Notes: generated by a model not told the origin, from the sequence alone. A stretch of DNA of 64,000 bases from an uncultured Chloroflexia bacterium (GCA_963797095.1 CAWCNY010000008.1:32001-96000); one strand, 5' to 3'. Positions 58,179 through 64,000 are shown, counted from the first letter of the stretch. A program made the numbers and translations.

Positions 58179-60245
58179 ATGGGTCGGAGGCATACTCGCT
58201 CGGACGAATTGCACGCTGCGCAGGCCGAAAGATTCGCAGCGCTTCTGGCGGATCTGCTCTACCAGGTCGGCCTCACCCACAAGGAAGTCGCCCAGATGCT
58301 CGGAGTGCCGGTTGGCACGGTTGATTCTTGGACTCGCGGCTCAGATCCCAAAATCCCGTCCGAGACCAACTTGTCGGCGCTGTGTGTCATGCTCAACGAG
58401 CACAAGCCCGGCGCTGGGGTGGAACTTGCCAGCGCCGCGGGCCGTTCCTGGTCGCCCCCTAACCCCGCCCCTAACTCAGCCATTGAAACCGGTCATGAAG
58501 TCCCAACAGAACCTCTCGCTGCTGACGTAACCACAACCTCGCTCGAAGCCAGGGCGGCCTCGGATACGGTCAATCTCTCGCCTATTCAGAGCGCCGTCGT
58601 GAGGGCAAAGCAGGAGGGCAAGACGTTTCTTGCGCCCGCAGCCCTCGTGATGGTCCTGTTGGCACTGTTGGCTGGTGGAGCTATTCTGATGCAGAGCCGC
58701 AACTCGAGCCCTGGCGGAGACCCAACCACCACGCCCAGTGTCAATCCAACGCCTCCATCCGAAGGCGTACAACTGGGAGATCGCCTGTTGGCAGAGCGCA
58801 AGCCCGATCAGGCGTTGAGCGCATATGAGCTGGTGCTGGCCAGCGAATCAAGCAATGCCCAGGCGCTGCTGGGCAAGGGGCGGGCGTTAACCGACTTGGA
58901 ACGGTACGGAGAAGCCGTTGGGGCGCTGACTGACGCATTGGCCGCAAAGCCAGGCGATTTCCAGACTTTACTGGCTCGCGCTCATGTTTATCTCAGGATG
59001 AAATACTGGGGTTACGCCCGTGATGATGCCAACCGGGCGCTTGAACTGGACGAGGCTTCGCTGGACGCTTTGCTGGCAAGGGGACACGCCGCTGCCGGAA
59101 GTAACGCGTGGGCGGAGGCGCTTGCAGACTACGATGCCGCGTTGAAGACTCACTCCAACGACCCCTCTGTTTACCTGGATCGTGGGGAAGCGTACCTGGA
59201 ACACGGGGATGCTGCACAGGCAACCGCCGACTTCAATAAAGCTTTGTCGCTAAATCCCGGGCCCTCGCGCGCATTGGTCGCCCTGGGCCGCACCTACCTC
59301 ACGGGCGATCTGATTCAGCCCAACAGGGCGCTCGAATACTTTAGCCAGGCCATTGAAGCCGAACCAGATAGCAGCGATGCATATTACTGGAGGGGCTACA
59401 CTTACATGGATCAAATAGGGGTGCCTGCAAGCGCACGTGATGACCTTACAAAGGCCATCGACATCGGCCCGGCCAATTCACGACTATACCATGCGCGTGC
59501 TAAAAGTGAGGAGTTGTTGGACGACAGAGAAGCACAACTTGCCGACCTGGACCGGGCGGTGGCTCTCGATCCCAGAAATCCGCAGGTCTACCATTGGAGA
59601 TACGAGTATTCCTACTGGAACCGAGATTACACTCATGCACTCAGCGACCTAAACACCGAGTTGGGAAGCGACAGAAATAACCCGCTGCTACATATCTACA
59701 GGAGCGAGTTGTACCTTCTGCTCGAGAACCCGGTCCAGGCCGAGGTCGACGCACGCCAGGCCGTGGTTCTAGGCCATGAATATGCTCTCACTTATGTCGC
59801 CCTGGCTCAGGCGCTGTCCATACAGCAGAAATACACAGATGCTCTTGCCGAGGCCAACCGGGCTGTGCGCGCCAGCGATCCAGACAACCACGTTGCCGCT
59901 CTTGCCGCAAGAGGATGGGTTGAATTGAAAATGGGGCAGATTAGCCAGGCCACCGCCGATTTTGAGGAGGCGCTCAAGTCCGATGGCTTCAACAGGATAG
60001 CGCTCTTCGGTCGTGCCAGCATCTCTATTGACAACAACCAGTTTGAATCCGCTCTGAATGATATCGAACTCGGTATAAACCAGTATGATCGCTACGGCCT
60101 TGGCTATTTGTTGCGCGCCCGCGTGGCGATGGCCCAGGATAAGCCCGACAAAGCTCGTGCGGATCTATCAGAGGCCCAAGACCGAATCCTGTATCCAGAC
60201 GAGTCTTCTCAGGTCAAAGCGTTACTGGGAGAACTCAATCCTTAG
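58179..60245 (+). CDS. XRE-type HTH + transmembrane helix + long TPR array
   Basis: 'LTHKEVAQMLGVPVGTVDSWTRG' HTH; TM 'AALVMVLLALLAGGAILM'; more than 10 TPR-like repeats. Confidence 0.85.
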   Translation: MGRRHTRSDELHAAQAERFAALLADLLYQVGLTHKEVAQMLGVPVGTVDSWTRGSDPKIPSETNLSALCVMLNEHKPGAGVELASAAGRSWSPPNPAPNSAIETGHEVPTEPLAADVTTTSLEARAASDTVNLSPIQSAVVRAKQEGKTFLAPAALVMVLLALLAGGAILMQSRNSSPGGDPTTTPSVNPTPPSEGVQLGDRLLAERKPDQALSAYELVLASESSNAQALLGKGRALTDLERYGEAVGALTDALAAKPGDFQTLLARAHVYLRMKYWGYARDDANRALELDEASLDALLARGHAAAGSNAWAEALADYDAALKTHSNDPSVYLDRGEAYLEHGDAAQATADFNKALSLNPGPSRALVALGRTYLTGDLIQPNRALEYFSQAIEAEPDSSDAYYWRGYTYMDQIGVPASARDDLTKAIDIGPANSRLYHARAKSEELLDDREAQLADLDRAVALDPRNPQVYHWRYEYSYWNRDYTHALSDLNTELGSDRNNPLLHIYRSELYLLLENPVQAEVDARQAVVLGHEYALTYVALAQALSIQQKYTDALAEANRAVRASDPDNHVAALAARGWVELKMGQISQATADFEEALKSDGFNRIALFGRASISIDNNQFESALNDIELGINQYDRYGLGYLLRARVAMAQDKPDKARADLSEAQDRILYPDESSQVKALLGELNP

Positions 60246-60284
60246 GCATCCATGCCATCAGGCTCATAGTAGGAGCAATATCAT

Positions 60285-60360
60285 GGTGCAAGTAAACTCG
60301 TAAGCGCCAATGTCGTAGGCCTTGCCACGTGGCCTGGGCACTCCCTTATAGTCCAACCGA
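60285..60360 (-). pseudogene. 3' remnant of another beta-helix protein
   Basis: RLDYKGVPRPRGKAYDIGAYEF parallels LDYLGYPRPQGKGFDIGAYES of 53688..56273. Confidence 0.65.
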
Positions 60361-60532
60361 CTTCGATTTGCTTGTTACTTCCAGAGCCTCCAAGATAGAA
60401 ACCGTGATCTATATGGGTAATGGTTTGCCAAAACATTCATGATCGCGTAAGCGGTCAGAGTAAGCCATGGCCCTACAGGCCACCATTACCGATGAAAATG
60501 GATATACTGGTTCAAGGAGGTTGCCAAGGCTA

Positions 60533-60680
60533 AAGGTCGGCCCCAACCTGGTGCCCCGAGCCTGTTTCAGAGTATGACCTGGGTATCTTCAGGCACCATT
60601 GTCTGTCGCTCCTTCTTGAGTTCTTGAGAAGGAAGCACGTAGAGGAGAATCTTCGCATAATGGATACCCGCTTGGCCTAC
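60533..60680 (+). ncRNA. Putative bridge/seek RNA of IS110 copy 1
   Basis: Blocks conserved with copy 2 (AAGGTCGG, CTGGTGC, CGAGCC, TGACCTGGGT, AGGCACCA, GGAAGCACG, AGAATCT); boundaries approximate. Confidence 0.65.
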
Positions 60681-60730
60681 CTCCTGTCTCCGCCTGTCTG
60701 CTGATTACGCGAAAGGAGGTACAGGCAGCA

Positions 60731-61954
60731 ATGAACATACTTTATGAGCGATGCTGTGGGTTGGATGTTCACAAGAAGAGTGTGGTGGCTTGCTTACTCA
60801 CCCCACAGGGCAAGCAGGTAAGGACGTTCGGCACCATGACTGGCGATATCCTTCAGATGGCAGACTGGCTCCAGCAAGAAGGGTGTACTCATGTGGCGAT
60901 GGAATCGACCGGCGTCTATTGGAAACCGATCTACAACCTATTGGAGGGGGAGTTTGAACTGCTCTTGGTCAATGCCCAGCACATCAAAGCAGTGCTTGGT
61001 CGCAAGACCGATGTACGCGATTGTGAGTGGATCGCCGACTTGCTCAGACACGGCCTGCTGAGAGGCAGTTTCGTACCTGATCGCCCCCAACGGGAGTTAA
61101 GGGAACTAACACGATACCGCACGCAATTGATAAGAGAACGCTCTACTGAGGTCGACCGGTTGCAGAAGACGTTGGAGGGAGCCAATATCAAGCTGGCAAG
61201 TGTTGCCACCGACATCATGGGAGTATCGGGGAGGCAGATCCTTTCGGCGTTGCTGGACGGACAGGTCGATGAGCGAGCGATGGCAGAACTTGCCAGGGGG
61301 CGGATGAGGGAGAAGATACCCCAACTGCAAGAGGCACTCCGAGGATGCTTTGGTGCCCATCAACGCTTCATGCTAGCTCACCAGTTAGCCTTGATCGACG
61401 TGCTAGACGCATCGATTGAGGGGTTGAGCCGCGAGATAGAAGAGAGGGTGAGCCCTTTTCAGTTGGCGTTGGACTTGTTGGTGACGATCAGGGGAGTGGG
61501 GCAGCGCACAGCGGAGGTGATCGTCTCTGAGGTAGGAGTTGATATGAGCCGATTTCCCACATCTCGGCATCTGGCCTCGTGGGCAGGGATGTGTCCTGGC
61601 AACAACGAGAGTGCAGGTAAACGCAAGAGCGGTAGGACCCGTAAAGCTAATCCGTGGCTGAGAACGGCATTAGTGGAGGCCGCTCAAGCAGCTGCTCACT
61701 GCAAACAGAGTTACCTGTCAGCACAATACCACCGGATAGCCAGGCGTGGAGGTGCCAACAAAGCTGCAGTAGCTGTAGGTCATACTATTCTCGTTATTGC
61801 TTATGAGATGCTGACGCATCAAACCACCTACAATGAGTTGGGAGGAAACTACTTCCATGAGCGAGACCGCAAGGCCAAAGAGCGGCGTCTGATCCATAGC
61901 CTGGAGCGACTTGGATACAAGGTTTCACTTGAGCCGGTTGCTTCGGCTGCATGA
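60731..61954 (+). CDS. IS110-family DEDD transposase/recombinase
   Basis: CGLDVHK, AMESTG, GRKTDVRD, ESAGK. Confidence 0.95.
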   Translation: MNILYERCCGLDVHKKSVVACLLTPQGKQVRTFGTMTGDILQMADWLQQEGCTHVAMESTGVYWKPIYNLLEGEFELLLVNAQHIKAVLGRKTDVRDCEWIADLLRHGLLRGSFVPDRPQRELRELTRYRTQLIRERSTEVDRLQKTLEGANIKLASVATDIMGVSGRQILSALLDGQVDERAMAELARGRMREKIPQLQEALRGCFGAHQRFMLAHQLALIDVLDASIEGLSREIEERVSPFQLALDLLVTIRGVGQRTAEVIVSEVGVDMSRFPTSRHLASWAGMCPGNNESAGKRKSGRTRKANPWLRTALVEAAQAAAHCKQSYLSAQYHRIARRGGANKAAVAVGHTILVIAYEMLTHQTTYNELGGNYFHERDRKAKERRLIHSLERLGYKVSLEPVASAA

Positions 61955-62078
61955 ATTCCAGTTATTTTCAGAGGAGAGGAGTTTGTCATGTCGCTGGGGA
62001 CACCAGCGTATGAATGAAAATGGTTGAGCCACCCCTTGACCATGTGCTATGCTACTCGTTAGGCACTCTGAGCGCAAC

Positions 62079-62260
62079 AAGGTCGGGCTTGGTCTGGTGC
62101 TGCGAGCCCGTAAGAGCAGTTTGACCTGGGTGTCCCGAGGCACCACGTATTGTTGCTCCCATGCCTGTCCAGGCATCACCACTGTTGTGGGTCGGTGATT
62201 GGGTTGGGGATGGGAAGCACGCACAGCAGAATCTGTGATCAGGTGGACACCTCGCTCAGT
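62079..62260 (+). ncRNA. Putative bridge/seek RNA of IS110 copy 2
   Basis: Same conserved blocks as copy 1, with a longer variable stem; boundaries approximate. Confidence 0.65.
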
Positions 62261-62296
62261 GTCATGGTAAGTGTCATTTGTCTTAGCAATCTGAAC

Positions 62297-62350
62297 GAAC
62301 GCGAACGCGAACGCGAACGCGAACGCGAACGCGAACGCGAACGCGAACGC
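62297..62350. repeat. (GAACGC)9 microsatellite inside the IS110 left end
   Basis: Read directly; copy 1 has a single ACGCGAA at the equivalent position. Confidence 0.93.
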
Positions 62351-62375
62351 GAACAGGGCATAGGAGGTGGCTACG

Positions 62376-63644
62376 ATGCAAGTGGTTTATGAGAGATGCT
62401 GCGGGTTGGACATTCACAAGAGGACAGTAGTGGCTTGTATAATCTTGCCAGGAACGCTGGGACCCACCGGCCAACCCACCGGCCAACCCACCAAGGAAGT
62501 CAAGAGCTTTGGCACCATGACCGATGATCTGCTCCACCTGTCCGACTGGCTCCTCTCCCATCGAGTGACCCATGTGGCCATGGAGTCGACAGGGGTCTTT
62601 TGGAAACCCATTTACAACCTGTTGGAAGGGCAGTTCGAGCTTTTGTTGGTCAACCCCCAACACATCAAGGCGGTGCCTGGTCGCAAGACTGACGTGCGAG
62701 ACTGTGAGTGGATTGCCGATCTTTTGCGTCACGGGCTGTTGGCTGGGAGTTTTGTGCCTGACCAGGGACAGCGAGAGCTTCGGGAATTGACGCGCTACCG
62801 CACCCAGTTGATAAGGGAGCGTGCTTCTGAGGTCAACCGACTGCAGAAGACGTTGGAGGGGGCCAACATCAAGCTGGCAAGTGTCGCTACTGACATTACG
62901 GGAGTATCGGGGCGTCAGATACTGCAAGCTTTGTTGGAGGGGCAGAGCGATGAGCGAGCAATGGCCGAGCTTGCCAGGGGGCGCATGAGGGAGAAGATAC
63001 CGCAGTTGGAGGCGGCTCTCAAAGGGAGGTTCAGAGCACATCAGCGCTTTATGGTAGCCCAGCAGTTGGCCCACATAGACTTCCTGGACGAGGCCATTGA
63101 GAAGGTGAACATAGAGATAGAGGCAAGAATGGCCCCTTTTGGGTGGGCGCTGGACCTGTTGGAGACGATCCGGGGAGTGGGCCAGCGCACGGCTGAGGTG
63201 ATCATCGCAGAGATAGGGGTTGATATGGAGCGTTTCCCCACCTCCCGCCATTTGGCATCGTGGGCTGGGATGTGTCCTGGGAACCATGAGAGTGCGGGTA
63301 AGCGTAAGAGTGGCAAGACACGTAAAGGCAATGTGTGGTTGCGAACGGCGTTGGTGGAGGCCGCTCAAGCGGCGGGGCGGTGCAAAGGGAGCAAGGAGAG
63401 CTACTTGTCTGCTCAGTATCGGAGGATAGCCCGCAGTGGTGGGTCCAACAAAGCGGCGGTGGCTGTGGGCCACTCTATTCTGGTAATTGCCTATGAGATG
63501 TTGAAGCATCAAACCACCTACAACGATTTAGGTAATGGTTACTTTGATGAGCGAGACCGGCAAGCAAAAGAGCGGCGGCTGATACATAGTTTGGAGAAGC
63601 TGGGATACAGGGTCTCTCTTGAGCCTCTCCCTTCAGCTGCCTGA
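62376..63644 (+). CDS. IS110-family DEDD transposase/recombinase
   Basis: CGLDIHK, AMESTG, GRKTDVRD, ESAGK; RBS AGGAGG; closely related to copy 1. Confidence 0.95.
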   Translation: MQVVYERCCGLDIHKRTVVACIILPGTLGPTGQPTGQPTKEVKSFGTMTDDLLHLSDWLLSHRVTHVAMESTGVFWKPIYNLLEGQFELLLVNPQHIKAVPGRKTDVRDCEWIADLLRHGLLAGSFVPDQGQRELRELTRYRTQLIRERASEVNRLQKTLEGANIKLASVATDITGVSGRQILQALLEGQSDERAMAELARGRMREKIPQLEAALKGRFRAHQRFMVAQQLAHIDFLDEAIEKVNIEIEARMAPFGWALDLLETIRGVGQRTAEVIIAEIGVDMERFPTSRHLASWAGMCPGNHESAGKRKSGKTRKGNVWLRTALVEAAQAAGRCKGSKESYLSAQYRRIARSGGSNKAAVAVGHSILVIAYEMLKHQTTYNDLGNGYFDERDRQAKERRLIHSLEKLGYRVSLEPLPSAA

Positions 63645-63666
63645 TCCTGAGTTATTTTCACAGCAG

Positions 63667-63689
63667 CAGAGCAGAGCAGAGCAGAGCAG
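63667..63689. repeat. (CAGAG)n pentamer repeat flanking IS110 copy 2
   Basis: cagag cagag cagag cagag cag. Confidence 0.85.
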
Positions 63690-64000
63690 TTGAGGTGGAG
63701 CAATTTCCACGATATGCTTGGGGCATGACGGGGCAGACCCTTGAAGAGGAAGTAATCGCATTACGGGCAGAGGTAGCCAGCCTCGACTGACCTGATTTTC
63801 AAATGCCAACCTCATTTCTGACACTACCCGGGAGCTATTCTTGTACCTGGCCATTCAGGAGTCTCCCTGACAGGCCCTCAAGGCTCTTTGGTATGTTGGA
63901 GATTGGTGATGGCATTGCGCGAGCTAATATAGCCGCAGTCTCGCCTCTTGCTGCCTCAGTGTCCATCATGAATGCGCTATGCTATCGCTACATCTGTGAG

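Follow-up and report, generated by a model that had tools for sequence, protein, structure and literature searches.

Tandem IS110-family elements of an uncultured Chloroflexia bacterium with upstream bridge RNAs in reversed guide order and a possible insertion at a sibling's right junction

This study concerns two IS110-family insertion elements, referred to here as copy 1 and copy 2, which lie head to tail in a 64,000-nucleotide stretch of DNA from an uncultured Chloroflexia bacterium (GCA_963797095.1, CAWCNY010000008.1:32001-96000). This stretch, contig C8:32001-96000 of an assembly of 6.02 Mb in 8 contigs, is called the window, and positions refer to it unless a contig is named. With high confidence, both copies are regarded as bridge-RNA elements carrying the guides listed in Table 1, and the system is a known kind in a variant layout. 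For the tandem itself, it is somewhat probable that copy 2 landed on the right junction of copy 1, with targeting of a sibling's end as the cause. Bridge recombinases are under engineering as programmable genome editors, and mechanistic work has been carried out almost entirely on IS621. The tandem IS110 pair named in an earlier prediction made from the sequence alone, referred to here as the original prediction, was recognised, as both open reading frames (ORFs) match PF01548 (DEDD_Tnp_IS110; E 9e-34 and 4e-30) and PF02371 (Transposase_20; E 5e-24 and 2e-24) and reach the NCBIfam model NF033542, “IS110 family RNA-guided transposase”, with 290 and 294 bits at a cut-off of 140. The ORFs are about 75% identical at the nucleotide level, and the copies are two different, diverged IS110-family elements, both apparently intact. 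The recombinase aligns over its full length with assorted plasmid-borne IS110-family genes including ISKpn4 at 24-32% identity, and with that of ISEc21 over 77 amino acids only (29%); in a tblastn search against plasmids, no named insertion sequence was closer than 62%.

The bridge RNA was analysed comparatively. The scan of one genome per species gave 591 relatives, of which the best 80 loci (49-65% amino acid identity) were kept. The alignment A3, comprising 41 left-end segments, was used to build the covariance model R1, and guides were taken from alignment columns, while extraction by regular expressions was discarded as error-prone. The fold of A3 is an outer stem enclosing two homologous loops, each closed by a stem and containing a small hairpin: in the first (target) loop, stem A (AGGTC/GACCT) surrounds hairpin F (GGuGC...GCCC), and in the second (donor) loop, stem B surrounds hairpin C (GUyGC...GCAC). 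Standard pairs occupy 85.3% of 928 cells in the 41 sequences as opposed to 32-44% with the partners slid by 1-3 columns, both-sided changes are found in 16 of the 23 pairs, and none of 500 shuffles reached the covariation score. Two columns first drawn as pairs consist of a conserved A opposite C, each five nucleotides before a conserved G. Without them G-U exceeds A-C, 60 to 20, which on sequence grounds favours transcription of the RNA from the plus strand. A further candidate, stem D (GGTGC with GCACC), was rejected, as no covariation was visible by eye. Of the 80 homolog loci, 78 have a match to R1 ahead of the ORF, the other two being one without upstream sequence and one without a match, and this together with the covariation-supported fold bears out the non-coding bridge RNA that had been predicted in the left ends. 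The model also matches 10 places in the bacterium's own genome and is found in 4 of 25 other genomes of the genus, and the clade is seen in genome records labelled Chloroflexota, Bacillota, Acidobacteriota, Actinomycetota and others. Scanning of 59500-64000 with Rfam 15 gave no fitting model, only two sub-threshold chance matches, and with regard to the IS621 RNA, R1 and Rfam have no model in common.

The original prediction had assigned two heptamers in each left end as guides, one co-varying with the left flank (target) and one with the element's own right end (donor), and both assignments held in column and exact-match tests across the homologs. Alignment columns were compared with the DNA in 32-34 non-redundant elements (z = 6-9 throughout). 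Target-heptamer columns agree with the left flank with an identity of 0.94-1.00 at positions -6 to -3 and 0.75 at -7, and donor-heptamer columns agree with the right end at -7 to -3 with an identity of 0.91-1.00. The two nucleotides following the target heptamer (TA at 60573-74; TT at 62120-21) equal element bases +1 and +2 (identity 0.94, n=33). The “Tw” that the original prediction had taken as part of the fixed context is thus present, but it is a handshake dinucleotide spelling the first two bases of the element. Since only the heptamer was used to place the boundary, this result does not depend on the boundary setting. The exact-match test needs no boundaries at all; near-duplicates (L044, L045, L047, L091, L098) and loci with a short flank were excluded from it. 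In 30 of 36 elements, homologs or own, the donor heptamer recurs exactly in the 155 nt behind the ORF of that element, and heptamers of other elements do so in 16 of 1232 trials. For the target heptamer, an exact match in the own upstream flank is found in 18 of 32 cases (other elements' heptamers: 5 of 1118), and with the next two nucleotides added in 16 of 32 (others: 0 of 1120).

The remaining guides were sought in the 5' parts of the two loops. Across homologs, the segment between stem A and hairpin F is complementary to the core and right flank: complementary runs of at least 5 nt are present in 31 of 67 own pairs as opposed to 9.3% of 2958 mismatched pairs, and runs of at least 6 nt in 21 of 67 as opposed to 2.6%. 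In copies 1 and 2 this segment, which precedes the hairpin in the first loop, is accordingly listed in Table 1 as the putative right-target guide. Of 77 guide sets, 61 have an AG core and 15 an AA core, and the two loops agree in their core in 75. In the donor loop, the variable 5' segment resembles, in sense orientation, a stretch of the left end at about +20 to +30, just before the conserved ATGAAAAT, with runs of at least 5 nt in 32 of 66 own pairs as opposed to 7.0% of mismatched pairs. This resemblance could reflect either a duplicated module or the right-donor contact that is otherwise missing. The approximate stretches concerned are 60598-60603 and 60480-60491 in copy 1 and 62140-62145 and 62005-62015 in copy 2.

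These observations also bear on the possibility that the heptamer matches reflect protein-only recognition of ends and targets or shared descent, and that the conserved left end acts as a leader or in regulation instead of encoding a guide RNA. Direct contacts by the protein are indeed suggested by TGAAAAT/ATTTTCA and CATG, which are conserved motifs; however, it is the variable and not the conserved positions that track flank and end, compensatory changes back an RNA fold, and NCBIfam labels the family RNA-guided. Bridge RNA or seekRNA function has moreover been shown experimentally for IS621 and ISEc21, according to the accessible text of the respective reports (PMC11208160; PMC11187229). 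We therefore consider a protein-only explanation very improbable.

Several points weigh against the bridge-RNA assignment. The homolog set was selected by protein similarity and its members are kin, and boundaries were guide-assisted in the column identities, the flank listings, the count of TTTTC in left flanks given below, the right-target test and the core tally, leaving only the exact-match tests and the handshake result free of this dependence. The copy 1 RNA folded alone recovers the stems, yet no better than shuffled sequences (z = -1.5; 18 of 200 shuffles), and a scan for sigma-70-like promoters and terminators gave nothing above shuffles. No right-donor guide, i.e. a reverse complement of the core and left tip, was found next to the core by eye or by covariation. 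In contigs of 4 sequencing runs (2 studies, low depth) only the occupied copy 1/copy 2 junction was found, with neither a circle junction nor an empty site; it is spanned by record 6 of run X1 and record 12 of run X2, and the source sample may be among these runs.

The layout was compared with the systems described in the literature, as far as the accessible portions of the cited sources go. Both loops of the IS621 RNA have a 5' guide for the bottom strand (sense of left flank and core) and a 3' guide for the top strand, the latter with the handshake bases behind it (PMC11208160; PMC11208158). The guide order of ISEc21 is like that of IS621, and that of the IS1111-type seekRNAs is reversed (PMC11187229). 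As a control, ISEc21 (L112) shows ACAGCGA at 303-309, the sense of its left flank ATAGCGAC, before CCCTGG at 328-333, the antisense of its right flank CCAGGG. The order in the elements described here is reversed relative to IS621 and ISEc21, as the guide antisense to core and right flank comes first and the guide in the sense of the left flank second, and the target and donor heptamers sit 3' of each loop's small hairpin, as opposed to the 5' side in IS621.

In other respects the elements resemble IS621, including the DEDD and Tnp recombinase, an RNA gene that precedes the recombinase gene in the left end, and two pseudo-symmetric loops with the order stem, guide, U, stem-loop, G N, 7-nt guide with 2-nt handshake, stem. 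Each half contains a conserved unpaired A five nucleotides before a conserved G, and a flipped-out A and a syn G are described in the IS621 RNA (PMC11208158). Both loops read the same dinucleotide core with one invariant base, which is A in AG/AA here and T in IS621, where the T of the CT core is nearly invariant (PMC11208158). The differences are that here the 3' guide with its handshake is in sense (left flank, core, element start) and the 5' guide antisense, unlike IS621, where the 5' guide is in sense, that the core on the sense strand of the gene is AG/AA instead of CT, and that no contiguous right-donor guide was found. The AG core of the original prediction is present in most guide sets; taken together with the reversed guide order, its “AG-core subfamily” reads as the CT/TT core of IS621, with its invariant T, on the opposite strand.

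ISEc21 also has an upstream non-coding region supplying the guide RNA, and it targets another mobile element, an IS3-family transposase gene; it differs in having the bottom-strand match before the top-strand complement and a remote recombinase, and R1 gives no match to it. The IS1111-type seekRNAs (ISEc11, ISKpn4, ISPa11), which were compared by description, share the top-strand complement 5' of the bottom-strand match, but their non-coding region follows the recombinase gene, and they have subterminal inverted repeats of 11-13 bp (PMC11187229), whereas in this clade the non-coding region is upstream and there is only an inverted motif of about 7 bp, placed asymmetrically. The layout is probably most simply understood as an inversion of the recombination site with respect to the genes, the loop topology of IS621 being kept with mirrored DNA polarity. 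The combination of an IS1111-type guide order with an upstream RNA gene was not found described in the accessible literature, on which supplementary data could bear; exceptions in gene position such as ISMtsp17 are mentioned there without a reading of their guides (PMC11187229). The clade provides about 77 naturally occurring guide sets that share one conserved scaffold, the reading frame being complete for three guides out of four and for the handshake, and with its guide order, opposite to that of IS621, it could show whether loop polarity can be separated from gene position. By analogy with IS621 and ISEc21, the recombinase would be bound by the RNA, the donor loop would hold the joined ends of an excised circle and the target loop the target, and strand exchange would take place at AG.

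The boundaries of the elements are given in Table 1, in which a slash marks a junction. They are confirmed by two identical copies of a further element, IS-C, in different flanks and by el4, an internally deleted relative of copy 2 on contig C2. The four heptamers of the original prediction were found where it had placed them, as were the two 6/7 fits to the left flanks. Ahead of and behind the ORFs, the non-coding left ends comprise 270 nt (copy 1) and 394 nt (copy 2) and the right end 22 nt. Homologs likewise have a left tip of 4-5 nt followed by CATG and a hairpin, and a right end of the form TTATTTTC plus 7 nt; of 74 elements, 62 have TGAAAA within 80 nt of the left tip, and in 63 of 76 elements TTTTC is found just ahead of the 7 terminal nucleotides on the right. 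The distance of the resulting inverted motif to the tip is about 32 nt on the left and 6 nt on the right. There are no terminal inverted repeats, and the only duplication at the junctions is a shared AG in the IS-C copies and copy 2 and a shared GAG in copy 1. Because AGAGGAG fits two registers 5 nt apart (61970-76 and 61975-81), the end of copy 1 is ambiguous and may equally be 61981, so that it would abut copy 2 directly.

Table 1. Positions of the two elements and their predicted parts in the window.
Feature	Position	Strand	Remarks
Copy 1, IS110-family element	60461..61976	+	starts TAAGCC, ends TTTTCAGAGGAG; ends read in the sequence
Copy 1 left-end motif TGAAAAT	60493..60499	+	inverted repeat of right-end ATTTTCA, 61964-61970
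Copy 1 bridge-RNA gene (predicted)	60525..60686	+	covariance model R1, 105 bits, E 9e-21
Copy 1 RNA stems	outer stem 60523-28/60671-76; stem A 60534-38/60576-80; hairpin F 60550-63
Copy 1 RNA second loop	stem B 60581-87/60663-69; hairpin C 60605-38
Copy 1 putative right-target guide GCCCCAACCT	60540..60549	+	predicts target AG+GTTGGGGC
Copy 1 left-target guide TTCAGAG with handshake TA	60566..60574	+	flank GTCAGAG/TA (60454-60)
Copy 1 donor guide AGAGGAG	60641..60647	+	identical to last 7 nt of the element, 61970-76
Copy 1 recombinase gene	60731..61954	+	407 amino acids
AGGAG spacer	61977..61981	+	repeats last 5 nt of copy 1
Copy 2, IS110-family element	61982..63666	+	starts TTTGTC, ends TTTTCACAGCAG
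Copy 2 bridge-RNA gene (predicted)	62071..62269	+	R1, 100.7 bits
Copy 2 putative right-target guide GGCTTGGTCT	62086..62095	+	predicts target AG+ACCAAGCC
Copy 2 left-target guide AGAGCAG with handshake TT	62113..62121	+	flank AGAGGAG/TT (61975-81), mismatch at -3
Copy 2 donor guide ACAGCAG	62223..62229	+	identical to last 7 nt of the element, 63660-66
Copy 2 recombinase gene	62376..63644	+	422 amino acids from ATG at 62376
(AGCAG)x5 array	63665..63689	+	begins on the AG core of the copy 2 right end; TRF 5.0 copies, 100%

The preferred account of the tandem, insertion of copy 2 at the right junction of copy 1, draws on the guides of the whole clade. In the latter, the target guide would often equal the donor end of a sibling, which would direct insertion to the sibling's right junction, i.e. 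to TTTTCAGAGCAG plus flank. The motif TTTTC, which marks right ends, is present (at least 4 of 5 bases) at -12 to -8 in 19 of 69 distinct left flanks as opposed to 1.5% of 18,410 control 5-mers. All five cases with 5 of 5 bases are bona fide sibling ends, among them L038, L050 and L054, which follow miniature siblings with the left-end motif, and L077, which follows a sibling ORF; L046, a case with 4 of 5 bases, also follows a miniature sibling. In Bacillus sp. AFS088145, L084 and L047 are directly joined, right end to left tip, and the donor guide of the former and the target guide of the latter are both ATGGTAG. Among the 77 target heptamers, 13 equal some donor heptamer of the set, compared with 5.6 +/- 2.2 in column-shuffled guides. 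The contig L135 (G036:C72; 1814 nt, reverse strand) carries a chain Y/X/Y of mini elements abutting each other's right ends, in which X has no ORF but a full bridge RNA with target guide ATATCAG+GT and donor guide ATACTAG.

Within the genus, the specificities can be lined up as a chain. AGAGGAG is the right end of both copy 1 and IS-C, and the target guide of el3, the left-hand element of a second tandem described below, is GGAGGAG; the donor guide of el3, AGAGCAG, is the target guide of copy 2; copy 2 ends in ACAGCAG, which is the target guide of an element of the same genus (G013) adjoining ATTCACAGCAGCAG/. A relative of copy 2 in G037 has kept the donor guide ACAGCAG and carries the target guide ATGAGAG, matching its own flank in 7 of 7 positions, which as judged from the guides appears to be a natural reprogramming. 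At the locus itself, copy 2 would have inserted at the right end of copy 1 with a 6/7 fit, either on a pentamer-expanded end or 5 nt beyond it.

Separate observations on guides and flanks within the clade concern single loci. In a soil metagenome contig of run X4, a copy-2-type left tip (about 95% alike) is preceded, in the unaligned part ahead of window position 61980, by GTGTATTTTCAAAGT plus AG, which is right-end-like. In L062 (CAGGGAG) and L058 (GTACCAA) the target heptamer equals the own donor heptamer, so that an inserted copy would, at its right junction, restore the left half of the target it recognises. L031 and L040 are flanked by 8-bp direct repeats (GCGCAAAG and CCACAGAG), which look like a target duplication or a tandem target, unusual for IS110.

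The other copies in the genome, where copy 1 has 12 matches, place further constraints on the origin of the tandem. A second tandem lies at C5:605985-609309. Its right-hand element (C5:607625-609309) is 100% identical to copy 2, and the similarity of el3 to copy 1 is only about 65% in the left end and the first ~440 nt, with near-identity from window position ~60900 onward, the shared tract of about 2.78 kb spanning the spacer, copy 2 and the array. Since it shares this near-identical tract, the second locus appears, from the sequence comparison, to be a recombinational copy and not an independent insertion. The tract from mid-copy 1 through the array would later have been copied there by homologous recombination. 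The donor guide of el3 (AGAGCAG) differs from its right end (AGAGGAG), because the tract was, on this account, copied by recombination. Elements like el3 with an intact right end were sought in the family, and only fragments were found, in 2 of 25 genomes. IS-C is present as two identical copies on contig C6 in unrelated flanks, 66% identical to copy 1; its donor heptamer AGAGGAG equals its right end, and its target heptamer ACCTAAG faces CACCTAAG/ (ACCTAAG, 7/7) and CCCCTAAG/ (CCCTAAG, 6/7). In el4, the left junction TATATCAGAGCAG/TT reads AGAGCAG/TT, a 9/9 fit to the copy 2 guide and handshake; this flank is preceded by an apparent 45-nt sibling remnant and not by a repeat, and the right end TTTTCACAGCAG/CCAGG has no repeat beyond it. 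Taken over the genome's own elements, the target guide fits the left flank in 6 of 7 positions in copies 1 and 2 each, in 7 of 7 in IS-Cb and in 5 of 7 in el3, and the donor guides of copies 1 and 2 fit their right ends in 7 of 7.

The mosaic at C5 raises the question of whether the tandem itself arose by general recombination between copies of insertion sequences, i.e. unequal crossing-over or gene conversion, with the inner fit between guide and flank being incidental. Near-identity of window ~60900-63689 next to left elements that are only ~65% alike over the first ~440 nt is a typical mosaic, the donor guide of el3 no longer matches its own right end, and tandem duplication of whole IS110 modules (n = 437) has been reported with no targeting invoked in the accessible text (bioRxiv 10.64898/2026.08.14.744561). 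On the other hand, the left tip of copy 2 begins at the canonical first base, after AG, the handshake TT and 6 of 7 guide positions match, and exact sibling-end junctions with matching guides recur in unrelated genomes, which general recombination does not predict. This origin is regarded as quite improbable.

The original prediction offered a different cause, namely a host (CAGAG)n microsatellite pre-existing at both loci, into which both elements were programmed 5 bp apart. The copy 2 guide AGAGCAG indeed fits at every unit junction of such an array and TCAGAG of copy 1 fits the array start, el4 has the left flank TCAGAGCAG, and a microsatellite at both loci would supply the right-hand homology for the 2.78-kb conversion tract. 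Against this, arrays of (CAGAG) with at least 3 units occur only twice in the 6.0-Mb genome, both directly after copy-2 right ends, so that no unoccupied array exists there. The array lies to the right of copy 2 only, in phase with the AG core, and repeats AGCAG, the last 5 nt of that element, just as the spacer repeats those of copy 1. The right-target guides predict GTTGGGGC and ACCAAGCC and not CAGAG, the el4 flank follows an apparent sibling remnant, the second locus is apparently a recombinational copy, and among 71 listed right flanks of homologs and own elements, inspected by eye, one other locus (L037) has a short tandem repeat. Targeting of a host microsatellite is therefore considered unlikely, and this part of the original prediction lacks support. 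The sequence it gave after removal of both elements is correct in the AGGAG, but the array is (CAGAG)x4 + CAG and not x3.

The pentamers are more readily accounted for by the elements' own ends. AG recurs 5 nt apart in 7-nt ends such as AGAGGAG and those like AGAGCAG, and for this reason the donor guide fits two registers. Register slip, in replication or recombination, would add pentamers, and the 5-nt spacer and the (AGCAG)5 array would then be slipped repeats of the terminal pentamers. Single instances are seen in L079, with one AGCAG repeat after an AGAGCAG end, and L052, with a duplicated right end, and repeat units beside IS110 elements that keep left-donor matches have been described (bioRxiv 10.64898/2026.08.14.744561, accessible text). 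The array holds four exact matches to the target heptamer of copy 2, for which reason such arrays may, judged by these matches, be considered as landing pads.

Insertion of copy 2 at its sibling's end nevertheless has points against it. The right flanks of copies 1 and 2 match their right-target guides over 3 nt at the longest, which is background, so that both junctions are half-matched at best. The copy 2 left flank is mismatched to its guide at -3, a position mismatched in only 3 of 68 elements, and the same guide also fits any (CAGAG)n array. Nor does this account supply a route by which the tract could have reached C5, where homology ends with the array. No DNA match to the 1,061-nt left flank was found in 30 relatives, and thus no empty site. 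A fit of the copy 1 right-target guide to TTGAGG past the array with a 1-nt bulge was dropped as too weak.

Half-matched insertion is documented for IS621 (bioRxiv 10.64898/2026.08.31.748434). The expanded and tandem IS110 loci and half-match recombination described in the accessible text of the two preprints (bioRxiv 10.64898/2026.08.14.744561; 10.64898/2026.08.31.748434) resemble the present locus in their tandem modules, adjoining repeat units with left-donor matches and half-RNA fits. In the published tandem loci, one element is duplicated, the units are at least 50 bp and insertion is said not to regenerate the target, whereas here two different elements, a 5-bp unit and a downstream target guide equal to a sibling's donor guide (AGAGCAG of el3) are found; the supplementary data of these sources may hold such cases. 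A known IS110-family element that targets the end of another mobile element is alike in that respect, but its target is an unrelated transposon and not the junction of a sibling of the same clade.

A wider reading is that a widespread clade with an upstream bridge RNA and IS1111-type guide order habitually targets sibling right junctions and thereby builds A/B and Y/X/Y chains in safe sites, pentamer arrays being footprints of register slip between AG cores 5 nt apart. We regard this as a tentative idea that is possible, though somewhat doubtful. If it were true, converged target and donor guides would make both junctions full matches, and excision would be an ordinary bridge reaction. Sibling-end targeting, if real, would explain how such elements multiply without hitting host genes and would answer how integrated copies are recognised for excision. 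Taken by itself, the window holds an ordinary IS110 pair with an unusual junction history.

Some further observations concern the genome and the internal repeats of the elements. RNA matching R1 (79.5 bits) is present at C1:486071-486245(-) and C5:326308-326482(-) next to IS110 domain matches with open frames of only 175 amino acids, and these loci are probably broken elements of a fourth type. Scanning the genome for the predicted full targets gave many sites with 2 mismatches, and the copy 2 14-mer AGAGC-AG-ACCAAGC occurs exactly once, at C6:1058227(-). This site is unoccupied and near an ORF start, and chance is possible, as about 0.05 occurrences are expected and four patterns were tried. 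The repeat gcagcagcctccTTCAGAGGTTCGGCttgcacc is present six times (C4:544481, C4:702701, C4:533505(-), C5:162191(-), C6:1008481 and one more) and contains a 7/7 match to the copy 1 target heptamer and directly behind it GTT, in agreement with the initial 3 nt of the copy 1 right-target guide; it could be the usual target of copy 1. The left end of copy 2 contains a perfect (CGAACG)x9.8 microsatellite at 62296-62354, between the bridge RNA and the ORF, which is 25 nt shorter in one contig of run X2, and IS-C has a different, GATCAGATCG-like repeat at this place. Within the ORF of copy 2, 2.6 copies of the 12-nt repeat ACCCACCGGCCA (62462-62492) encode an insert PTGQPTGQPT, which copy 1 does not have.

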